The translations under genes were made by a program, and so were the position numbers. A DNA stretch of 64,000 bases from Vicinamibacteria bacterium. GTDB taxonomy: Bacteria; Acidobacteriota; Vicinamibacteria; Fen-336; CBDFGD01. Shown here piece by piece: positions 1,185 to 11,615 of this stretch (position 1 is its first letter; the number at the start of each line of letters is the position of its first letter). Location of the stretch: contig CBDFGD010000001.1 of assembly GCA_965246965.1 (NCBI GenBank), forward strand, positions 218,631-282,630. The letters are read 5' to 3'. A model generated the notes under the pieces. That model searched no databases and was not told where the DNA came from. It saw nothing but the letters and a program-made list of their open reading frames with translations.

Positions 1185-1883
1185 ATGAATCGCGAACCCA
1201 CGCTGCTCCCCTCTACCCGGTGGCTTCGTTCGGTGCTGCTTTTCGGCTTCGCGGCTACCGCCTGCGGCGCACCGGCTCCCGTGGCCCAGGCTCCCGCTGC
1301 CGCGCCGGCGGCCAGGCCCGCCGCGAGCGCCAGGGCGCCAACCGACAAGATCCGCTGGAAGGACGCTTCGGAGAAACAGCTGCTCGAGCTGAAGCCGCGC
1401 GAGGGCGGCTTCACGATCGGCGACGCCGCCGACGCCAAGATCGGCAGCGTCACCGTCTCGGTGGATCGGGTGAAGCTCGAGGACCCCGAGGGCGTCGAGG
1501 TCGCCAAGGTCAAGATGAAGGACGATGGCGGCGTCGAGCTGGAGGATGCCAGCGGCAACCGGCTCTACCGCATCAAGTTGGACGACGACGGCTCCTACCG
1601 CGTCAAGGACGCTAGCGACGCGACGGTCTACAAGGCCAAGGTGAAGGACGACGGATACGAGGTGCGGGATGCGTCCGGCGCGACGCTGGCCAAGGTGAAG
1701 CGCCGCGAGGGCAAGGTGAACTTCAAGACCGAGGAGGGGCAGAGCCTCGGGGAGCTGAAGGGGACCGAAAACGCGCGCGCCGCGATGTGGCTGGCCCTGG
1801 ACGGCCTGCCGGTGACGCAGCGGGCCGCGCTCGTCGTCTTCTTTCTCGTGGTCTATCAGTGCGATGAGCTGCCAGGAGCGTAG
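1185..1883 (+). CDS. secreted/lipoprotein with internal KDDGxYxVxDASG repeats
   Basis: AGGAGG-like RBS 7-14 nt upstream of ATG at 1185; hydrophobic signal with Cys (AATACGAP); degenerate ~20-aa repeats (KMKDDGGVELEDASG / KLDDDGSYRVKDASD / KVKDDGYEVRDASG). Confidence 0.5.
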   Translation: MNREPTLLPSTRWLRSVLLFGFAATACGAPAPVAQAPAAAPAARPAASARAPTDKIRWKDASEKQLLELKPREGGFTIGDAADAKIGSVTVSVDRVKLEDPEGVEVAKVKMKDDGGVELEDASGNRLYRIKLDDDGSYRVKDASDATVYKAKVKDDGYEVRDASGATLAKVKRREGKVNFKTEEGQSLGELKGTENARAAMWLALDGLPVTQRAALVVFFLVVYQCDELPGA

Positions 1884-2175
1884 CGGCTTCCTCTTTGCAC
1901 ACGGCTGCGACCGCGTGGCCGGGGCGAAGTGCTCGAAGTGCCAGAAGGACGTGTGCTCGCTCCACATCGGCAAGGGTCTCTGCACGACCTGTCAGAGGCA
2001 GGCCGCGGGGCGCACCCGCGGGAGGCCGGCGGGCGAGAACGACGACCCGTACTTCTACGCCGACACGTACTACCACGACTACCACTACTACGACGGCAAG
2101 GACCAGGCCGTCTTCGACGCGTCCGCCGTCGAGGCCGGGGCCGCGGATTTCGAGGGAGACTTCGAAGGGAGCTGA
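1864..2175 (+). CDS. small zinc-ribbon (CxxC x2) protein with Tyr/His/Asp-rich acidic tail
   Basis: 103-aa ORF: CSKCQKDVCSLHIGKGLCTTCQ followed by DDPYFYADTYYHDYHYYDG; overlaps upstream gene end by 20 nt. Confidence 0.35.
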   Translation: MSCQERSGFLFAHGCDRVAGAKCSKCQKDVCSLHIGKGLCTTCQRQAAGRTRGRPAGENDDPYFYADTYYHDYHYYDGKDQAVFDASAVEAGAADFEGDFEGS

Positions 2176-2817
2176 GACGAGGGTCGTCTACTACGCCCTC
2201 GGTGGCGGCCACGGCCACGCCATCCGCGCTCTCGCCGTAGCGCGTCGCCTGCGCGCTATCGATCCGTCGCTGACACCACAGGTCGTGATCCCGGAACGCC
2301 TGGCCGCATGGGCCGCTGCCGAGAAGATCGCATCGCTCTGCGTGCCCCCCGGCCTCGATTCGCTGGCCCTGGCCCGTTTCATCGCCGAGCGGCTGCGTGC
2401 CGCGTCGCCGGAACTGATGCTTGTCGACGTCTTTCCGCGAGGCGTGCTCGGTGAGCTGCCCGACGCTCTCGGTGACTGGAGCGCGAGGCTGTGGCTCATC
2501 GCTCGCCGTGTCGACCCACGTTTCTACACGAAGCCGGCGGCGGCTATGCTGCCTACCACGAGACGCGTGCGCTCGGTCTGTCGGGAGTCTTCGTGGCGCG
2601 CTCCAGGCGCTACGACGACCAGAAGTGGCGAGTGCGGGACCAGGCGCCTCCCACCACGCCGACGGAGCTCGAACGCGCGGTCGCCAGGGCCCTGGCGGAC
2701 GGTTCGGTTTTGGCTCCAGTGTCCGCCGCCGGCGCTCAGCAGATCGCCGGCTCCGTTGTCGACGCGCTCGGTCCGAACGCCGCGGTCAGGCGGCGCCTGA
2801 GCTCGGTTTCCGCCTGA
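2176..2817 (+). pseudogene. MurG/GT28-N-like glycosyltransferase, apparent frameshift (or split Alg14/Alg13-like)
   Basis: frame 2 encodes VVYYALGGGHGHAIRALAVARRL (G-rich GT-B N-domain loop, MurG-like); coding continues in frame 1 from ~2530 (YAAYHETRALGLSGVFVARSRRYDDQKW..); no ATG at N-terminus. Confidence 0.35.
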
Positions 2818-3907
2818 ACTCCGCCGCCGGGCCGAGCTCTTTGTGCAGGCGCGCGTTCTCTTCGAGGAACAGATCGCACCGGTGGCACGTCGGCAGGTGC
2901 TGCCCGCTCATGAAGCGCCGGCGGATTCGACGGTAGGGCTTGCCGTGGAAGATGGCCTTCATCGATTGCGAGCGCGCGTTGCCGAGCGGCTCCATCCGCC
3001 CGTTCGTCATGCAGCAGAGGAAGACGTCGCCGTTCCAGGCGAAGAAGGCGTGAAGCCAGGGAGCGAGGCACGGGTGACGCTCGTAGAAGCCGCGCGCGTA
3101 GAGTCCCTCCCGACTGAGCTTGACGTCGCCCGGTGTCACCCCGAACGGGTAGACCTTGCCCGGCGCCGTCGAGAAGCCGTGCTCACGCCGCAGGTCGAGG
3201 ACGAGAGGCGCGATCTCACGGTTGTACGCCTCGATCTGGCCGCGCGAAAGGCGCTTCTTGCGGGGTCCCTTCTCGTCGACGGGCATGGGATTGAGCTCGA
3301 CGGCACCGAGCTCCGCCGCCAACCGAACCATCTCCGGTAGCGTGCGGAAGTTGTCGTTCATGACGACGAAGTTGATGCGCACTTTGAGAGGGCGCTTCTC
3401 CCCTTCGGAGTAGCGGCGCAGCCAGCCGATCGTCTTCACCGATCGCTTGAATGCGCCCGCCATCCCGCGAATCCGATCGTGGACGTTGGGATTCGGGCCA
3501 TCCAGCGAGATCGATACGCTGTTGATGCCCGCGCGTGCCATGCGTCGCGCCCGCTCGCGATCGATCAGCGTGGCGTTCGTCGTCATGTTGGCGCGCATGC
3601 CGACGGCGATCGTGTGGTCGACCGGCGCGAGGAAATCGCGACGGAGGAACACCTTGCCGCCGGAGAAGTGGACCTTGCGGCAGCCCATCGCCGCCAGCTC
3701 ATCGAGGACCTGTTTCCAGCGCGGCGTCGTCAACGTGTCTTCGGTCTTCGTCTCCCAGTAGTGGCACATCTGGCAGCGCAGGTTGCAGCGGGACGTGATC
3801 TTGATCTTCGCCTCGCGAAGCACCGGCGGCGGGCCCGGTTCGAGGAGGCTCGTACGCATGGCCGGAGTGAAGCCAGGCTCGGCGATCAGCTCTTCGAGCG
3901 CGTACAT
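2786..3907 (-). CDS. radical SAM enzyme with C-terminal SPASM/twitch-type Cys cluster
   Basis: CNLRCQMCHYW (CX3CX2C) near N-terminus; C-terminal PCLAPW..NGDVFLCCMTNG..LGN..LPTCHRCDLF; ATG overlaps stop of upstream gene (TGATG). Confidence 0.8.
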   Translation of the reverse strand: MYALEELIAEPGFTPAMRTSLLEPGPPPVLREAKIKITSRCNLRCQMCHYWETKTEDTLTTPRWKQVLDELAAMGCRKVHFSGGKVFLRRDFLAPVDHTIAVGMRANMTTNATLIDRERARRMARAGINSVSISLDGPNPNVHDRIRGMAGAFKRSVKTIGWLRRYSEGEKRPLKVRINFVVMNDNFRTLPEMVRLAAELGAVELNPMPVDEKGPRKKRLSRGQIEAYNREIAPLVLDLRREHGFSTAPGKVYPFGVTPGDVKLSREGLYARGFYERHPCLAPWLHAFFAWNGDVFLCCMTNGRMEPLGNARSQSMKAIFHGKPYRRIRRRFMSGQHLPTCHRCDLFLEENARLHKELGPAAEFRRKPSSGAA

Positions 3908-4629
3908 CAGGCTGCCTTGCCGCGCACGCGGCCGACTCCGTCGTAGATCCAGAGCAGCGCCTTGAGGATGTGATCTCCGCTGACCCTGTGCTCTGGGCCG
4001 GTTTCCCGGACGGCGTCCCGGACGGCGTCCCCGCGCCCCTTGAACCACGTGTACTCCGGCGTCATCAATGAGCAGGTCAGTCGCCGGCCCCGGTGACGAG
4101 CACTCCGCAGCACCAGTGAGGCGGGGCGCGCGGATTGCTCGAGGTGAGCCGCGACCTGCGCCGGATCCGCGCTCTTGAGCCGCAGCGCGATGTCCAGCCG
4201 ACTGCGGATCCGTTCTTTCACCTTCGTGTACTTGCGTTTGGTCTTCTTTTTGACAGCCGCCAGATCGGTGACACGCAGGTCGTAGCGATTTCCGTCCATC
4301 AGCACGCCGCGCAGGCCCAACCAGGAATGCTCGTAGGCGAGCTGTTGCTGCCAGGGAGCGGGCTTCTCGTCCTTGAGCTTCTCGCCTCCTTTCTTGTACG
4401 ACCTGAAATCGATGTCGACAGTGACCTCGCTCTCCTGGGGCGTGTCCGCATTGAGCATCCGCAGCAGCTTGACCACGGTCTCGAGCTTGCGGTCGTCGAG
4501 ATCGAAGTCGGACGCCTGGCTCATCTTCACGAAGAAGAAAATCGCCACGGCCAGAAGCGCCGCAGGGATGAGCCAGAGCAGGCCGGAAGCGAGGTTGGCC
4601 GCCGCCAGGATGCCGGCCACCATACCCAC
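3907..4629 (-). CDS. single-pass membrane protein, paralog A (unknown family)
   Basis: N-terminal TM helix (GILAAANLASGLLWLIPAALLAVAIFFFV), Lys/Arg-rich patch KKKTKRKYTKVKERIRSR, conserved C-terminus RLTCSLMT...LLWIYDGVG; paralogous to 4799..5665. Confidence 0.6.
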   Translation of the reverse strand: MGMVAGILAAANLASGLLWLIPAALLAVAIFFFVKMSQASDFDLDDRKLETVVKLLRMLNADTPQESEVTVDIDFRSYKKGGEKLKDEKPAPWQQQLAYEHSWLGLRGVLMDGNRYDLRVTDLAAVKKKTKRKYTKVKERIRSRLDIALRLKSADPAQVAAHLEQSARPASLVLRSARHRGRRLTCSLMTPEYTWFKGRGDAVRDAVRETGPEHRVSGDHILKALLWIYDGVGRVRGKAA

Positions 4630-4798
4630 GAGCGACGTGCAGCCGAGGCCGGTAAAGCGCTTGACGCGAGCTTCGGCGTCCTTATCGCTGACCTGGGCGG
4701 CCTCGAACCGCCGCAGCAGCGGCAGAACTTTCGACGTAATCTCGTAGTTGTCGACCTTCCTGGCTGTGCGTGGATCCTATTCTGAATCCGGCCGCCGT

Positions 4799-5665
4799 TC
4801 ACGCGGCCCGGCTTCCGCCAACAGCGTCGAACACCCAGAGCAGACCCTCGAGGAGCATCTTGCCCGTGACCTTGTTCTCCGTGCCCCCGATGTCCTCGTG
4901 ACCATAGCGACCCCGGGTGACGAGATGATGGCGAGTGGTCAGGCTGCAGGTGAGCCGGTTGCCCCCTGCGGAGACGCTGCGCAGCGCCAGGCCGCGACGC
5001 TGCGGCTGAGTCTTGATGCGCTCGGCGATCCGGCCGACGCCCACCTTGCGGGAGGGCTTGAAGCGCAGCGCGATCGAGACGGTGCCCCGCGTTCGCGTTC
5101 TCCTCTTCGTGTACTTTCGCTTGCGCTTGTCTTTGACGATCGCTGTGTCCGTGAGTCCCAGCTGGAAGCGGGTGCCGTCGGCGAGGACACCGCGAAGCGT
5201 CAGCCACGGGTGAACGTAGGTGATGCTGCGTGTCGACCAGAAAATCCAGAAGCGGTCCTTCTCGGTCCGATGCTTGCGACCTGCTTTGACAGGATCGCGG
5301 AAGTCGAGCTCGAGATTGACTCGCGCGGCCGAAGGGATGTCGGCTCGGAGGATGCCCAGGACCCGGAGAGGAGCTTCGATCTTTCGGTCCTCGAGGTCGA
5401 CCCCCTGTGCGTGTGCTTGGATGATCCTGGCCACGAGCCCCGCAAGGGCCAAGGGCGGCACGAGCCACAAGACGTAGTAGAAGCCGGAAAGGCCCCAAAA
5501 GACAGCCGCAATCGTGACCGGAATGCAGCCGATCAGGAGTCGCTTGGCCCACTTGCCAGCAGTGACGGCTCGCTGCTCCGCGGCGCTGTCCCGCTCCTGA
5601 GCAGTCGTCAGGCGCGCCAGCAGCGGCTCGATCTGTTCCGTTGCTCGATGAACGCCGACTCGCAT
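4799..5665 (-). CDS. single-pass membrane protein, paralog B (unknown family)
   Basis: start at internal ATG 5665 (the 432-aa ORF N-terminal extension overlaps the GT4 gene in another frame); TM helix, KDKRKRKYTKRRTRTRG patch, RLTCSLTT...LLWVFDAVG C-terminus aligned with paralog A. Confidence 0.6.
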   Translation of the reverse strand: MRVGVHRATEQIEPLLARLTTAQERDSAAEQRAVTAGKWAKRLLIGCIPVTIAAVFWGLSGFYYVLWLVPPLALAGLVARIIQAHAQGVDLEDRKIEAPLRVLGILRADIPSAARVNLELDFRDPVKAGRKHRTEKDRFWIFWSTRSITYVHPWLTLRGVLADGTRFQLGLTDTAIVKDKRKRKYTKRRTRTRGTVSIALRFKPSRKVGVGRIAERIKTQPQRRGLALRSVSAGGNRLTCSLTTRHHLVTRGRYGHEDIGGTENKVTGKMLLEGLLWVFDAVGGSRAA

Positions 5666-5681
5666 AGGGAGTGCGCCGATC

Positions 5682-6815
5682 CTACTCCTCGAGACCCGCG
5701 ACCGCAGCCGCGAGCTTGGCGCGAAAGGCGTCCGGGCCCCAGCTCGCGAGCGCCGCTTCGCGTGCGCGACGCCCCAGCTCTTCGCGCTCCGCGGGGTGGT
5801 CCAGCATCCATGTGATCCCGTCCGCCAGGGCGAGCGGGCTGCCGGGGCGCGCGAGCCACGCGGTGAGCTCGTGCTCGAGGATCTCCTCGACAGGCGAGAT
5901 CGCCGTTGCGAGGATCGGGCGCGCGGCGGCCATGTACTCGAGCAGCTTGATCGGGCAACAGCCCTGCACGGCGTTGCGCGCGTCCGCGGCAAGCGGAGCC
6001 ACGCACACGTGGGCCGTGTGCAGGATCGGAGCGAGGTCGGCCTGGCCCGTCGCGGGCAAGAGCTGTACTTGATGATGGACCCGGCAGCGGCGTGCAAAGA
6101 GCCGCAGGCGGCGTCGCCAGTGACTCTTGGCGGGGCCGATCACGTGAAGCTCGACCGGGGCGCTGCGGAAACGCGTCAGCGCCTCGATCAGCGTGTCGAG
6201 ACCCTGCCACGGCGCCAGGGTGCCCTGATACACGAGGCGGACCGGTGGATCAGTGACCATAGGCGTGGCCGCCGGTACGAAGAGGTCGCCGTCCACGCCG
6301 TTCGGAACGAAGCGCATCCCGGGCCGGTCGCCGACGATGAGCCGGGCCGCGTCGAGGATCTCCCGCGAGACGCCGAGCAGCGCATCAGCCCCGCTCAGGG
6401 TCGCCTGCAGCAGACTGAGCCGGCTGCCGTGGAACATTCCCAGCTCGACGTCGTTGCCGCGCAGGCTCACGAGCGACGGGCGCCCGAGTCGACGGGCGAG
6501 GGTCACGGCCGCGTAGCCGGCGCGCCCCGCGTAGAAGCCGTGGACCAGATCGGGATCATTCCGCGCCGCGATCGTGGCGCCGACCTGGAACAGCAAGCGA
6601 AGGCTTTCGTCGTCGCGCCGCGACTGACCGATGCGGTGCACGCGAACGCTGCCTTCAGAACCTGCGACGACCTCTCCGGGCGCGAGGTCGCGAGTCAGCT
6701 GGAGGACGTCGATGCCTTCGAGACGAGGGCCGAGCCCCGCCACCTGTCGACCCGCAGCGGCGGCAACGCCTCCCTTCTGCGGTGGGAAGCGTTCGACGAT
6801 CCAGAGCACTCGCAT
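5682..6815 (-). CDS. GT4-family (group 1) glycosyltransferase
   Basis: 377 aa; EX7E-type C-terminal domain (CVAPLAADARNAVQGCCPIKLLEYMAAARPILAT), typical GT-B fold length. Confidence 0.8.
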   Translation of the reverse strand: MRVLWIVERFPPQKGGVAAAAGRQVAGLGPRLEGIDVLQLTRDLAPGEVVAGSEGSVRVHRIGQSRRDDESLRLLFQVGATIAARNDPDLVHGFYAGRAGYAAVTLARRLGRPSLVSLRGNDVELGMFHGSRLSLLQATLSGADALLGVSREILDAARLIVGDRPGMRFVPNGVDGDLFVPAATPMVTDPPVRLVYQGTLAPWQGLDTLIEALTRFRSAPVELHVIGPAKSHWRRRLRLFARRCRVHHQVQLLPATGQADLAPILHTAHVCVAPLAADARNAVQGCCPIKLLEYMAAARPILATAISPVEEILEHELTAWLARPGSPLALADGITWMLDHPAEREELGRRAREAALASWGPDAFRAKLAAAVAGLEE

Positions 6816-7129
6816 CGCGCCCTAAGCTATCGCGAACGCCACGGCGGCGCTTGCTGCACTGGGTCTATGCTGCGTCGCAGCCGCCCAGGTTCAATTCCAT
6901 GGACGCGCTCTCTTCCAATTCCATGGATCGCCCCATACTGTACCCGTGCAGGGCCTCCCCTGGGGTTCGGTCCGCGAGCGCAAGTACAAGAGGAGAAAGG
7001 CGTTCAATGGCGGCGTGCGCTCCGGTGATGGCAGATGGCCGCGGCGTGGCACTCGGGCCTGGCGGACCAGTGCTTGCGTTCTTTGACACTGCAACGGCCA
7101 CAACTAGTGGCAAGAGGCGGAACGTGGCG

Positions 7130-8587
7130 ATGAAGGGCGGCCCAGCGGTTGTTGCAGTCCATTTGTTGATGACGAGTCCGGTCGTGGCTCAGGACGGCGG
7201 CAGATGGGCTCAGTTCAGAGGACCCAACGCTTCCGGTGTCCATGCGTCCGCCGAGCTTCCGGATCGCCTGGCCCCTTCCGAGGCGCTGTGGAAAGCCCGC
7301 GTCCCGCCCGGGCATTCGTCCGTAGTGCTCTCCAAGGACCGCCTTTTCCTCACTGGCTTCGACGAGCGATCCGGGGGACTCGACGTGCTATGCCTCAACC
7401 GCACCGACGGACAACTCCTCTGGCGTCGATCAGTGCCAGTGGAACAGATCGAGGCCCACCATGAAGTGGCCAGCCCGGCGGCCGCGACACCCGTCGTCGA
7501 CGGCGAGGCGGTCTTCGCATACTTCGGGTCCTTCGGCCTCGTACGCTACGACCTCGACGGAAACGAGATCTGGCGGAAACCGCTCTCCGTGCCAGAGACG
7601 CCTTACGGGACGGCCACATCTCCCGTCGTGGGCGCAGGTCTCCTCTTCTTGAACGGCCAAGGCAAAGAGCCGTACTTGCTCGCCGTGAATCCCGAAACGG
7701 GGGCGACCGTCTGGCGCAAGCAGACGCCCCGCTCCGGCTCAGCCCACTCGACGCCCATCATCGCCCCCGGCGCGGATGGTGCCGCCGAGGTCATCGTCTT
7801 TGGCGACGCCGCGATCGCTGCCTATGACGTCCGTAGCGGAGATGAGATCTGGTGGATGACGATCGCCACGCTGGATGCCATTGCGACGCCCGTGATTGGC
7901 GACGGATTGCTGTACCTTGTTTCGCAGAGTTCAGCGGCATTGAACGAGGGGTATCAAGGCACGTTCGACAACTTGCTGGAGCGGTTCGACAAAGATGGGG
8001 ACACCAGCCTCAGCGCGGCCGAGGTTCCCGAAAGCTTCATCTTTCTCGAGCGCAGCGCGGAGAGCTCCGGAGACATATCGCTCAGGGTGCTCTTCCAGTA
8101 CTACGACACGAACGGGAACGATGTCCTCGATCGGGCCGAATGGCGTGCTGCACGGCAGTTCCGCGCGCGCTTCGACAACGCTCTCGTCGCTCTGAAGCCC
8201 GGCGGGCGGGGGGAGCTGTCGCCGAAGCGGCTGATCTGGCACTACAAGCGCTCCCTGCCCGAAGTGCCGTCGCCGCTGCTGTACCGCGGGAAGATCTATC
8301 TCGTCAAAGACGGGGGTCTTCTGACCTGCTTGGATGCCGGGGACGGACGTCTCGTCCATCGTGAGCGGCTCCCGGCGCGAGGTCAGTACTACGCCTCCCC
8401 CGTGGCCGGGGACGAGAAGATCATCATCGCCTCCAATAGTGGGATAGTCGCTGTTCTAAGGGATGGTGACGAGTTCGACGTGATGTCCGAGCAACAGTTC
8501 GACGAGCCGGTCTTCGCGACCCCGGCTCTCGGCGGGAACGCGGTCTACATCAGAACCGAAGCCCACGTATACGCCTTCCACAGGTGA
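7130..8587 (+). CDS. PQQ-repeat (BamB-like) beta-propeller protein with central EF-hand pair, secreted
   Basis: ATG at 7130 preceded by GAGGCGG; signal peptide MKGGPAVVAVHLLMTSPVVAQ; repeated W-motif blades; two canonical 12-residue EF-hand loops DKDGDTSLSAAE and DTNGNDVLDRAE. Confidence 0.7.
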   Translation: MKGGPAVVAVHLLMTSPVVAQDGGRWAQFRGPNASGVHASAELPDRLAPSEALWKARVPPGHSSVVLSKDRLFLTGFDERSGGLDVLCLNRTDGQLLWRRSVPVEQIEAHHEVASPAAATPVVDGEAVFAYFGSFGLVRYDLDGNEIWRKPLSVPETPYGTATSPVVGAGLLFLNGQGKEPYLLAVNPETGATVWRKQTPRSGSAHSTPIIAPGADGAAEVIVFGDAAIAAYDVRSGDEIWWMTIATLDAIATPVIGDGLLYLVSQSSAALNEGYQGTFDNLLERFDKDGDTSLSAAEVPESFIFLERSAESSGDISLRVLFQYYDTNGNDVLDRAEWRAARQFRARFDNALVALKPGGRGELSPKRLIWHYKRSLPEVPSPLLYRGKIYLVKDGGLLTCLDAGDGRLVHRERLPARGQYYASPVAGDEKIIIASNSGIVAVLRDGDEFDVMSEQQFDEPVFATPALGGNAVYIRTEAHVYAFHR

Positions 8588-8628: not shown

Positions 8629-9491
8629 CTACTCAGCCGCTTTCATGGCACGCGCATAGTCGGCGAGGCGACGAGCCATAGTCGCGGCGGGATCGTCGGG
8701 AGCCAGGCGCATCGCCTCCTCGAACTTGGAGATGGCCAGGTCGAATTCCCGGTCTCGAATCTGGGCCTGCCCCTCTGCGACGAGTCCCATCGCCCGCGGA
8801 TCGCCGATGCCGACCTCGAAGAAATGGGTCACGCTGACGACTCCGGGCAGCGATGAGGCCAGCGCCACGGCGCCGTCCCCGTCCTCACGGGCTCTTATCT
8901 CGCCGGTCAGGGTGACCACCCCGGCCTCGACGCTCACCCGGAAGACGTTGCCATTCACGGACGCGGACTCGGCGAGAGCCGCCTCGACTCCCGCACGGAT
9001 CTGCTGGTCATCTGGGCCGCGCTCACGACCGAGGAAGAAAGCGCCCAGCATGAGCGCGATCGCCAGAATCCCTCCACCCACGTAGAAGGACCGTGGAAGC
9101 TGCCCGGCACCTGGCGCCGGCGTTCGGGGCGCACTCGGCGGGTGCGAGCGTACACCTGGGGGTTGCGACCGTACGCCGGGGGGCCGCGAGCGCACGCCGG
9201 GAGGTTGCGAGCGGACGCCGGGGGGTCGCGAGCGTACGCCGGGCGGTTGCAGGCGTACGCCGGGCGGGCCCGTACTCGACGGTCGGCGAGGCGTCGCTCT
9301 GGCCGGACCCGGTGGGGCATCTGGCTTCTCCGCCGATGGCGCGGCCTCGTCCGCTCCGATATCGGCTTTCTCGCCCGCGGGAGAACCCTCCCCGGCCAGC
9401 CCTTGTGGGGCGAGGGTCTCCGGCATCTCGGCGAGCAGAGCCAGGACTTTGGCGAATTCGTCGGCCGATGCGAACCGTCGATTCGGATCCT
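8629..9491 (-). pseudogene. C-terminal portion of Ser/Thr kinase gene (heptad-repeat linker, TM helix, BON domain, TPR-like tail) separated from its N-terminus by IS1595 insertion
   Basis: begins ..DPNRRFASADEFAKVL (kinase C-lobe end) in frame with kinase at 10593..11492 across an 8-bp TSD; BON motif NVFRVSVEAGVVTLTGEIRAREDGDGAVALASSLPGVVSV. Confidence 0.65.
9141..9266 (-). repeat. 21-bp tandem repeat x6 encoding PPGVRS(R/Q/H) heptapeptides
   Basis: near-identical 21-nt units (..ggttgcgagcgtacgccgggg..) within the kinase C-terminal linker. Confidence 0.6.
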
Positions 9492-10592
9492 CGGGGGTAT
9501 CCATTTAACCGGTGTAAACTGAGCCGGTGGATCAGCCTCGTGCTGGCACGCACTATCCGCGGTCCGTGGGCGAGTTCCAGGCCTGGTTCCGGACCGATGC
9601 GGACTGCCTGGAGTGGCTGCGGTGGCCCGCCAGCTTCGCCTGCTTGGACTGCGGCCATGATGGGGGCTGGCGGCTGGGCGACGGTCGCTTCATGTGCTCA
9701 GGGTGCGGCGGCCGTACGTCGGTGACAGCGGGCACGATCTTTGACCGGACGCGCACGCCGCTAACGGTTTGGTTCACCGCCTGCTGGCTGTTCGCCACCG
9801 GCAAGGACGGGATCTCGGCGCTGAGCCTGAAGCGGACGCTGGAGATCGGCTCCTACCAGACCGCGTGGGCGATGCTCCATCGGCTGAGGTCGGTGCTGGT
9901 GCGCCCGGGCCGGGACCGGCTGGCCGGGATGGTACAGGTAGATGAGACCTACATCGGCGGTGAGGAGGCGGGGCTGCGCGGCGGCCGGGCCAAAGGCAAG
10001 AAGGTTTTGACCGGGATCGCGGTGGAGGTCCGGGAGCCGAGAGGATTCGGACGGTGCCGGATGCTGCCGCTGACCGATGCGTCGGCCGCCTCGTTGCACG
10101 CCTTTGTAACGGCTCACGTCGAGCCGGGCGCGAGGATCGTCACCGACGGCTGGCAGGGCTACCGCGGGCTGGAGAAGCTCGGCTACGTCCACGACCGGCG
10201 CAGCCAGCGGGCCGCCCGAACCCGCGGGGAGGATCCCGGCGAGCTACTGCCCGCAGTGCACCGGGTCGCCTCGCTAGCCAAGCGGTGGTTGCTGGGTACC
10301 CACCAGGGCTCGGTGAACGACGCGCACCTGGCCAGCTACCTGAATGAGTTCGCGTTCCGCTTCAACCGCCGCACCTCCCGCAGCCGCGGGATGGTGTTCT
10401 ACCGAGTGCTCGAGCTCGCCGTCGCCCACGACCCGGTGCGCTACCAGGACCTCATCGCCACCCAGCGGCCCCGGGCAGTGCCGCCCTCGCAGCCGCAGGC
10501 GCGCGGGCACCCGCCGAGCCTGGAGCGCTCTCCAGCGAACCGCCCGTGGAGAACTGCCAACCTGGACTCCTCCGGTTAAATGGAGACCCCCA
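9492..10592 (+). mobile_element. IS1595-family (ISXO2-like) insertion sequence, 1101 bp, 21-bp IRs, 8-bp TSD CGGATCCT
   Basis: left end CGGGGGTATCCATTTAACCGG, right end reverse complement TGGGGGTCTCCATTTAACCGG; direct repeat cggatcct at 9484..9491 and 10593..10600. Confidence 0.85.
9527..10579 (+). CDS. ISXO2-like (IS1595 family) DDE transposase
   Basis: 350 aa with N-terminal zinc-finger CLDCGHDGGWRLGDGRFMCSGCGG and FTACWLFATGKDGISALSLKRTLEIGSYQTAW. Confidence 0.85.
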   Translation: MDQPRAGTHYPRSVGEFQAWFRTDADCLEWLRWPASFACLDCGHDGGWRLGDGRFMCSGCGGRTSVTAGTIFDRTRTPLTVWFTACWLFATGKDGISALSLKRTLEIGSYQTAWAMLHRLRSVLVRPGRDRLAGMVQVDETYIGGEEAGLRGGRAKGKKVLTGIAVEVREPRGFGRCRMLPLTDASAASLHAFVTAHVEPGARIVTDGWQGYRGLEKLGYVHDRRSQRAARTRGEDPGELLPAVHRVASLAKRWLLGTHQGSVNDAHLASYLNEFAFRFNRRTSRSRGMVFYRVLELAVAHDPVRYQDLIATQRPRAVPPSQPQARGHPPSLERSPANRPWRTANLDSSG

Positions 10593-11492
10593 CGGATCCT
10601 TATGGAGCGCCTTCATGAGGACGTCCGACACTTGCGAAGGAATGCGCAGCTCGGGCCGGGAGCGATGGGGTGCTGGGGGTACGGTCTGGATGTGATCGAA
10701 GAGCATCTCCATGGGCGTCTCCGAGACGAACGGCGCCTCGCCGGTCAGTAGCTCGTACAGCACGACCCCGAGGGAGTAGATGTCCGAGCGGCCGTCGAGA
10801 TCGTCGCCCCGCCTACCCTGCGCCTGCTCGGGCGACATGTACTGAGGCGTACCGATCAGCACGCCCGTCCCGGTGGCGGTGTATCCCTGGCCCCCTGCGA
10901 GCGTCCCCTCCTTGACCTTGGCGATTCCGAAATCGAGAACCTTGACGACGTCGCTGCCATCGTCGGTCTTCACGAGCAGGACGTTGTCCGGCTTGATGTC
11001 GCGGTGCGTGATGCCCAGCTCGTGGGCCGCGGACAGGGCTCGCGCGATCTGCTCGGCGATGCGCAAGGCACGGCGCGCCGGCATCGGGCCCGTCTTCTTG
11101 AGGACATCGCGCAGCGCGCTTCCCTCGACGCATTCCATGACGATGAACGGCCGCCCGTCCTCCGTCGTGTCCAGGTCGTCGACCCGCACAGCGTTCGGGT
11201 GCTTGAGCTTGCGCGTGACGACCGCCTCCTGCTTGAAGCGCTTGAGGAAGCTCTCATCGTCGGCGAGCTTGGCGCTGACGACTTTGATCGCGCGCTCCTC
11301 ACCGAAGGCGAGATGCTTGGCGCGATAGACGGCGGCCATCCCGCCGGACCCGATGCGCTCCAGAATCTCGTACTTCTCCCGAAGGATCATCCCCGGTAGC
11401 AGTTCGTTGGCGCTACGCAGCTCGCCCTGACACTTTGGGCAAGTCGTGAAGTCTCTCGGGAACGTCGAGTGACAGGAATCGCAGTACTTCAT
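10593..11492 (-). pseudogene. N-terminal portion of Hanks-type Ser/Thr kinase (zinc-ribbon + kinase domain) interrupted by IS1595
   Basis: MKYCDSCHSTFPRDFTTCPKCQ, GSGGMAAVYRA..AIK, HRDIKPDNVLL, DFGIAK, TPQYMSPEQ; frame runs into IS end after ..KALHKDP. Confidence 0.75.
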
Positions 11493-11615
11493 AGGCGGGC
11501 CCAGGGATTGTAGCGTGCGCACTGGTGCAGTCCCGTCTGCAAGCGCCGCGAAATTTCCTCTGGGCGGTCGCAGTTTCTCGAGCAATCGATCCGGACGCCC
11601 TCGAGAGCACGCTTA

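Follow-up and report, generated by a model that had tools for sequence, protein, structure and literature searches.

What does a radical S-adenosylmethionine (radical-SAM) enzyme do when its gene is tightly linked to genes for glycosyltransferases and for membrane proteins without a recognisable domain? The question is raised by a 64,000-nucleotide stretch of the Vicinamibacteria bacterium assembly GCA_965246965.1 (contig CBDFGD010000001.1, positions 218,631 to 282,630, forward strand), hereafter the window. Between positions 2786 and 6815, four co-oriented genes on the minus strand encode a GT4-family glycosyltransferase, two paralogous membrane proteins (paralogs B and A of a family that we call X) and a radical-SAM enzyme. 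The original prediction, made from the letters alone, had placed these four genes correctly, called the operon uncharacterised and proposed that paralog A is matured by the radical-SAM enzyme. We find that the operon is part of a cassette of seven gene families: two GT4 glycosyltransferases (GT4a and GT4b), X in one or two copies and a radical-SAM enzyme of probable twitch type, together with a second transcription unit encoding a lipoprotein (Y), a small cysteine-rich protein (Z) and a third glycosyltransferase (W). The cassette probably represents a form of glycoconjugate biosynthesis assisted by a radical-SAM enzyme, in which the accessory proteins make up a new and conserved set. More specifically, we favour, with a probability of roughly 0.4, a membrane-associated glycoconjugate pathway whose product is most likely a glycolipid and in which X serves the radical-SAM enzyme as its membrane adaptor. 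The members found in the window are as follows.

1185..1883, plus strand: Y, lipoprotein with a lipobox, beta-hairpin repeats and a C-terminal hydrophobic helix; beta-flower/tubby-like
1864..2175, plus strand: Z, small Cys/Tyr-rich protein with eight invariant metal ligands and a conserved C-terminus
2180..2784, plus strand: remnant of W, a GT1/GT28-like GT-B glycosyltransferase, divided between two frames and lacking about 120 codons; probable pseudogene
2786..3907, minus strand: radical-SAM enzyme whose C-terminal domain appears to be of twitch type (truncated SPASM), 373 aa; PF04055, PF13186
3907..4776, minus strand: X paralog A, 240 aa from GTG 4629; homology reaches 4758
4799..5665, minus strand: X paralog B, 288 aa; transmembrane helical hairpin, basic alpha/beta domain, KRKYTK hairpin tip
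5682..6815, minus strand: GT4b, GT4-family glycosyltransferase of GT-B fold, 377 aa; N- and C-terminal GT4 domains of Pfam

The four minus-strand genes are closely packed, as had been predicted, with a gap of 16 nt (not 17 nt) between the GT4b stop and the ATG of paralog B, and a TGATG in the sequence in which the stop of paralog A overlaps the radical-SAM ATG. The two membrane proteins (240 and 288 aa) are paralogs, sharing 38% identity over 227 aa (E = 6e-38). Comparison with other loci by tblastn and profiles identified GT4b as the ortholog of the second of two tandem GT4 genes. Y, Z and W were recovered by tblastn as further conserved partners, and in the window it is they that run towards the radical-SAM gene. 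Two features first reported only as converging on the operon, an MGT-like glycosyltransferase fragment (2180-2784) and a small Cys/Tyr-rich open reading frame (ORF; 1864-2175), are thus real and conserved members of the cassette.

How widespread is this arrangement? A word-indexed search with paralog B returned 11 proteins, and every contig long enough to be judged carried the order GT4, GT4, X (one or two copies), radical SAM/SPASM. An alignment of the radical-SAM enzyme was then run against one genome per species (185,579 species), giving 78 loci, and profiles of the seven families were applied to these loci, to ten earlier contigs and to the window. The cassette is present in about 70 metagenome-assembled genomes (MAGs) from at least eight bacterial phyla, the hosts including Polyangia and other Myxococcota, Pirellulales and other Planctomycetota, Elusimicrobia, Holophagales, Terriglobia, Armatimonadota, Vulcanimicrobiota, UBP9, Actinomycetota, Anaerolineae and Caldilineae. 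Synteny is kept in metagenomic contigs or MAGs of Elusimicrobiota, Planctomycetota, Myxococcota, Acidobacteriota, Armatimonadota, Vulcanimicrobiota, Chloroflexota, Actinomycetota and UBP9. All hosts found are MAGs.

For 41 loci, an orthologous radical-SAM enzyme was accompanied by at least 6 kb of flank on either side. Among these well-flanked loci GT4b was found in 39, GT4a, W and Z in 37 each, X (within 10 kb) in 36 and Y in 28, and all six partner families occurred together in 23. The membrane-protein family is tightly linked to this radical-SAM subfamily, a co-occurrence that the original prediction had proposed to check. As an internal control, six loci carrying a different radical-SAM family contained zero cassette partners. 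Two pairs are the tightest: X lies directly upstream of the radical-SAM gene on the same strand in 42 of the 61 loci holding both, and Y is followed immediately by Z in 34/41 loci. No other gene is conserved beside the cassette and no flank recurs in the four loci examined; the flanks include housekeeping genes (pyruvate dehydrogenase, SelB, PGI) and show no recurrent mobile elements. Neither transporters nor sugar-nucleotide genes nor proteases were found among the conserved neighbours. Full-text literature searches returned no published description of the cassette or its parts. By these searches the seven-gene set appears to be undescribed. None of X, Y and Z reaches the threshold of a Pfam or NCBIfam family.

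Some loci depart from the common plan. Seven loci from Polyangiaceae MAGs (L030, L034, L038, L040, L042, L043 and L060) have a rearranged gene order, with X preceding Z and W on one strand and Y beside GT4a, so that the linked partner of X is the radical-SAM gene in some lineages and Z-W in others. Four others (L011, L023, L026 and L064) hold the orthologous radical-SAM gene and both GT4 genes with no detectable X within 10 kb, and Z is missing as well from the last three; such lineages may have X and Z at another site or do without them. At one Planctomycetota locus (L005, MAG GCA_050186825.1; 8357-9870 and 15623-17020), a second, divergent radical-SAM/SPASM gene and a Prok-RING_1 gene adjoin the cassette, and the X homolog has a TerB domain at its C-terminus (27 bits, cut-off 24.4).

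What kind of radical-SAM enzyme does the cassette encode? The window's protein matches PF04055 (91.6 bits against a cut-off of 29.5, 8e-26) and the SPASM family PF13186 (49.7 bits, 5e-13). Across an alignment of 27 sequences the CX3CX2C motif (C41, C45 and C48; residues 41-48) is invariant, and the only invariant cysteines of the C-terminal region are C280, C298, C299, C341 and C344, in the pattern C-x17-CC-x41-CxxC; neither the CX2CX5CX3C block nor the seven-cysteine SPASM motif is present in this alignment. Because just five C-terminal cysteines are conserved, too few for a seven-cysteine SPASM domain, the pattern suggests a twitch-like enzyme with one auxiliary cluster. The NCBIfam twitch model NF033640 covers the same C-terminal region at 79-99 bits, with a cut-off of 170. 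Pfam searches found no domain of the PqqD type or RiPP recognition element (RRE; RiPP, ribosomally synthesised and post-translationally modified peptide) in the enzyme, for which there is also no space because the SAM-cluster motif begins at residue 41, and no PqqD-like gene occurs among the conserved neighbours.

Curated radical-SAM subfamilies (sactipeptide, heme AhbC/D, NirJ, MoaA, PqqE, MftC, BlsE and SkfB, among others) were considered and rejected, their models matching the core alone and at a fraction of their cut-offs. For example, NCBIfam scores and cut-offs were 112 and 625 for StsB, 98.5 and 381 for PqqE, 88.9 and 265 for MftC, and 54 and 300 for SkfB, and the maturase matches were limited to residues ~28-205. 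The best solved relatives in the PDB are SkfB, BlsE, PqqE and MoaA (E = 1e-13 to 1e-7), over the core only. For the radical-SAM enzyme, 320 relatives were found at E<=1e-30, the 120 matches listed are 52-100% identical to the window's enzyme, and some of those listed come from MAGs labelled Armatimonadetes, Planctomycetota and Elusimicrobia. Across phyla, homologs of the enzyme are 51-73% identical and those of X about 30-40%. This far stronger conservation of the enzyme suits a fixed substrate (a small molecule, a sugar or a lipid) better than it suits X as the substrate.

Which proteins, then, accompany this enzyme? Neither X paralog matched anything in Pfam, NCBIfam, PADLOC, PDB sequence or PDB profile searches, in line with the earlier view that they hold no recognisable domain. 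The family is nevertheless large and merely unannotated, with 1173 members at E<=1e-3 and 617 at E<=1e-10 in a profile search of 1.84 billion cluster representatives. Its hallmark is a basic hairpin, K-x3-KRKYTK, and the KRKYTK patch already noted is present in both window paralogs; in the family alignment K178, K182 (100%), K184 and K187 of this hairpin are near-invariant, as is W154 (98%). The N-terminal membrane segment had been described as a single transmembrane helix. Instead, the hydrophobic stretch is 43-48 residues long and forms a two-helix hairpin in the AlphaFold model (predicted local distance difference test, pLDDT, 84), which comprises a short N-terminal strand and helix, the transmembrane hairpin, an alpha/beta domain of long antiparallel hairpins and a C-terminal helix. 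The C-terminal domain is strongly basic, its net charge averaging +16 across the final 200 residues (n=57). We infer that both termini of X lie in the cytoplasm, because a hairpin leaves its two ends on one side of the membrane and signal peptides are absent from the partner enzymes.

Y is about 200-250 aa long across its homologs. A lipobox cysteine follows a signal-like N-terminus in the window's copy and in the homologs shown; the automatic ORF call starts the window's gene at TTG 1122, and ATG 1185 fits the signal peptide. After the lipobox come a Pro/Ala linker, five or six hairpin repeats of the K-x-K-D-D-G type and a C-terminal hydrophobic helix. Matches to Bflower_2 (19.4 bits against 38) and to LOR (up to 21 against 24.5, in 7/13 members) are below threshold. 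The beta-flower/Tubby-like clan (CL0395) is characterised by repeated beta-hairpins with an [DNEQ]xxG tip around a C-terminal hydrophobic helix, and the features of Y agree with the description of beta-flower, tubby-like lipoproteins (PMC10584680).

Z has eight invariant metal ligands (C3, C15, C23, C26, C31, H34, C40 and C43), which would form a B-box-like two-zinc module; its matches to the B-box are weak. Its tail is acidic and aromatic (DDPYFY...), with a mean net charge of -9.5 and 17% aromatic residues, and ends in the pattern D-W-x-G-S/T. Specifically, 120/120 homologs end in Ser (96) or Thr (24), position -2 is Gly or Ala in 117/120, and position -4 is W, M, F or L in 106/120.

Both GT4 halves of GT4b score above the Pfam cut-offs (PF13579 56 bits, PF13439 40, PF13692 77, PF00534 74), and its nearest solved relatives are Tll1590 and PimB'; for GT4a and GT4b taken together these are GlgM, Tll1590, PimB', MshA and BshA. 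The intact W family measures ~320-350 aa, and its profile finds YjiC (1e-7) and MurG (1e-4) among PDB profiles, with a weak match to PF04101, below threshold, in 9/18 members, suggesting a remote GT-B glycosyltransferase of the GT1/GT28 type. All three cassette glycosyltransferases are assigned the GT-B fold, and their nearest solved relatives (GlgM, PimB', MshA, BshA, YjiC and MurG) use small or lipid acceptors.

What could such a set of proteins make? We propose that a glycoconjugate is assembled on the inner membrane, at its cytoplasmic side, most likely with a membrane lipid as the acceptor. Three things favour a lipid: the membrane anchor, the tubby-like lipoprotein across the membrane from it, and the use of lipids or small molecules as acceptors by the closest characterised glycosyltransferases. 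The three GT-B enzymes would add sugars from common nucleotide-sugar donors to give a short glycan, in keeping with the lack of sugar-nucleotide synthesis genes and of a polyprenyl-phosphate transferase in the cassette. The radical-SAM enzyme, with its SAM cluster and one putative auxiliary [4Fe-4S] cluster, would then carry out one radical step on the sugar-bearing intermediate, for which oxidation, epimerisation and ring rearrangement are candidate reactions. X, anchored by its helical hairpin, would use its strongly basic cytoplasmic domain to bring substrate and radical-SAM enzyme together, and Y would bind or handle the product across the membrane, in the periplasm.

Several points weigh against this proposal. 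Neither acceptor nor reaction is fixed by homology to an enzyme already characterised, the membrane topology proposed for X is itself deduced, and the twitch assignment draws on the cysteine pattern and on the sub-threshold match to NF033640 (79 against 170 bits). In addition, the cassette has no exporter, and no flippase or exporter is conserved with it although Y is extracytoplasmic. Finally, a lipid acceptor leaves the invariant C-terminal Ser/Thr of Z unexplained.

Among known systems, the cassette resembles twitch enzymes of the type of BtrN, a 2-deoxy-scyllo-inosamine dehydrogenase, and carbohydrate-modifying radical-SAM enzymes such as BlsE and DesII. The likeness lies in the CX3CX2C core followed by what appears to be a shortened SPASM domain, in a pattern fitting one auxiliary cluster, in the lack of a peptide-recognition domain and in the genomic company of glycosyltransferases. 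BlsE and DesII are among the PDB sequence matches of the radical-SAM enzyme (3.5e-12 and 1.8e-5), and BtrN was not recovered by that search at E<=1e-3. Unlike the cassette, BtrN-type enzymes are soluble, belong to antibiotic pathways and are not known to be coupled to a membrane protein, lipoprotein or zinc-finger protein. A second parallel is offered by calditol synthase Cds and the hopanoid enzyme HpnJ, where a membrane lipid first receives a hexose from a glycosyltransferase and the hexose is afterwards rearranged by a radical-SAM enzyme (PMC13459092). The logic is alike, the comparison being by description only, and these systems are described without a partner like X, Y or Z and occur in other taxa with other lipids. 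On the features compared, the cassette resembles twitch-type carbohydrate-modifying radical-SAM enzymes and also follows the logic of calditol or hopanoid cyclitol head groups. It does not show the defining features tested for full-SPASM maturases (including anSME, the anaerobic sulfatase-maturating enzyme), RiPP maturases, mycofactocin/pyrroloquinoline quinone (PQQ) pathways, LysW or PADLOC systems.

Could Z, rather than a lipid, carry the product? This is the main rival to a glycolipid pathway, and we regard it as a serious though unlikely explanation. The near-uniform end of Z, with its terminal Ser or Thr and the constraints at positions -2 and -4, is what a carrier or substrate of the cassette might show, the folded zinc domain followed by a conserved tail is carrier-protein-like, and the Z tail and the X C-terminal domain carry opposite charges. 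Glycosyltransferases of GT-B fold that glycosylate proteins do exist, namely GtfA, SdgA/B and EarP. Small zinc-binding carriers with an acidic tail are also familiar from LysW-type amino-group carriers, whose C-terminal motif, EDWGE, shares with Z the order aromatic-x-Gly-terminal residue. The analogy fails in the features tested: Z ends in Ser/Thr and not in Glu, it has eight zinc ligands and not four, and neither an ATP-grasp ligase nor enzymes of a lysine or arginine pathway are among the conserved neighbours of the cassette. Mycofactocin and PQQ pathways are also similar in part: their clusters join an enzyme of the radical-SAM/SPASM family to a small protein whose C-terminus is conserved and, in mycofactocin, to a glycosyltransferase, and the MftC and PqqE models match the radical-SAM core at 89-98 bits. 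These scores are far under the cut-offs (265 and 381), the auxiliary-cluster cysteine set of the cassette enzyme is truncated, and the cassette has no PqqD/MftB chaperone, RRE domain, peptidase or flavoenzyme. More generally, the cassette lacks a conserved ligase, protease or release enzyme, its radical-SAM enzyme has neither an RRE domain nor a PqqD-like partner, and a periplasmic lipoprotein such as Y is hard to fit with a purely cytoplasmic protein modification. It is unlikely, but a real possibility, that the cassette is a new protein-templated or C-terminal modification system.

Is X itself the substrate, as had first been proposed? In this explanation the translationally coupled radical-SAM enzyme would be an anSME-like maturase modifying a conserved residue of X, and we consider it improbable. 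X and the radical-SAM gene do form the most conserved pair, often with overlapping stop and start codons, and the near-invariant exposed hairpin lysines and W154 are possible modification sites. The residue originally put forward, the cysteine of RLTCSL, was ruled out by the X family alignment: it is confined to the two paralogs of this genome, is replaced by A, V, H or W in other members, and the commonest residue of that column is Val, at 26%. A Lys-Trp cross-link within X was likewise considered and rejected, W154 and K182 lying at opposite ends of the sheet in the predicted strand order. anSME resembles the cassette enzyme in having a SPASM-family C-terminal domain without an RRE, and it acts on a folded protein. 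However, anSME, like most protein and peptide maturases, has a full SPASM domain, with seven cysteines and two auxiliary clusters, and targets Cys or Ser in a sulfatase motif, whereas the cassette enzyme is twitch-like with five cysteines and one predicted auxiliary cluster, no sulfatase is linked to it, and X has no conserved Cys or Ser. No curated maturase cut-off is reached, the enzyme is far more conserved than its supposed substrate, and X is a folded membrane protein of 270 aa and not a peptide. The proposal also leaves three linked glycosyltransferases unexplained. The anSME-like pairing of substrate and maturase is thus not upheld.

A membrane-stress or defence module, with a viperin-like radical-SAM enzyme acting on a nucleotide and X as membrane effector, is very improbable: weak PADLOC pVip matches (64 bits), the TerB domain fused to X in the Planctomycetota locus and weak holin-like Pfam matches to the X hairpin speak for it, but the viperin matches are confined to the generic radical-SAM core and viperins have no twitch/SPASM domain, paralog A, paralog B, GT4b and Z are all without a PADLOC match, the flanks of the four loci examined, which include housekeeping genes, show neither a recurrent gene nor recurrent mobile elements, and the high conservation of the enzyme across phyla is unlike that of fast-evolving defence genes.

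A gene set so conserved and self-contained implies one specific product or modification. Three of the partner families (X, Y and Z) come without annotation, X alone accounting for 1173 sequence clusters, and the carrier lineages (Polyangia, Pirellulales, Elusimicrobiota, Vulcanimicrobiota and others) are represented here by MAGs alone. The cassette would provide a well-delimited system in which to look for a new reaction of a radical-SAM enzyme on a substrate that bears a sugar, and a first functional context for a beta-flower-like lipoprotein.

Is the window's own copy functional? It was compared with intact versions such as that of locus L009, whose radical-SAM enzyme is 69% identical. W is present as profile positions 1-121 in one frame (~2180-2548) and 241-316 in another (~2536-2761); it therefore lacks positions 122-240 (~120 codons) and is frameshifted. 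A profile search found GT4a nowhere in the 64 kb window. The homology of paralog A to paralog B and the family runs 40-50 codons upstream of GTG 4629, towards a stop at 4777-4779, and the open frame between 4629 and 4779 contains no ATG, GTG or TTG upstream of that GTG. The codon aligned with the Met of its homologs is AGG (4761-4759), just inside an AGGAAGG run resembling a Shine-Dalgarno sequence, and the GTG-started product is not found in a collection of 15 billion proteins. In the radical-SAM enzyme, residue 85 (3653-3655) is Lys (FSGGK) where 26/26 aligned homologs have the Glu of the GGE motif; this E85K change could be a sequencing error, or else a substitution that inactivates the enzyme or reflects relaxed selection. 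Together, the deletion and frameshift in W, the missing GT4a, the start of paralog A and E85K suggest relaxed selection, with the cassette partly decayed in this genome. The apparent decay might instead reflect an assembly error.

Beyond GT4b, a divergent plus-strand gene (6782-8587) encodes a PQQ-like beta-propeller with an inserted EF-hand pair. It fills the slot held by GT4a in many other loci, and the profile census of the window placed none of the seven cassette families there. Further along, an IS1595/ISXO2-like transposase gene (9527-10579, plus strand; PF12762, 1.5e-28) lies between two minus-strand ORFs within 8629-11585. One of these (10452-11585) carries a Ser/Thr kinase domain, and the other (8629-9504) begins with a kinase C-lobe-like segment, 'DPNRRFASADEF', followed by six PPGVRS repeats, a transmembrane segment and a BON domain. 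The two ORFs look like one kinase-BON gene split by the IS1595/ISXO2-like insertion.

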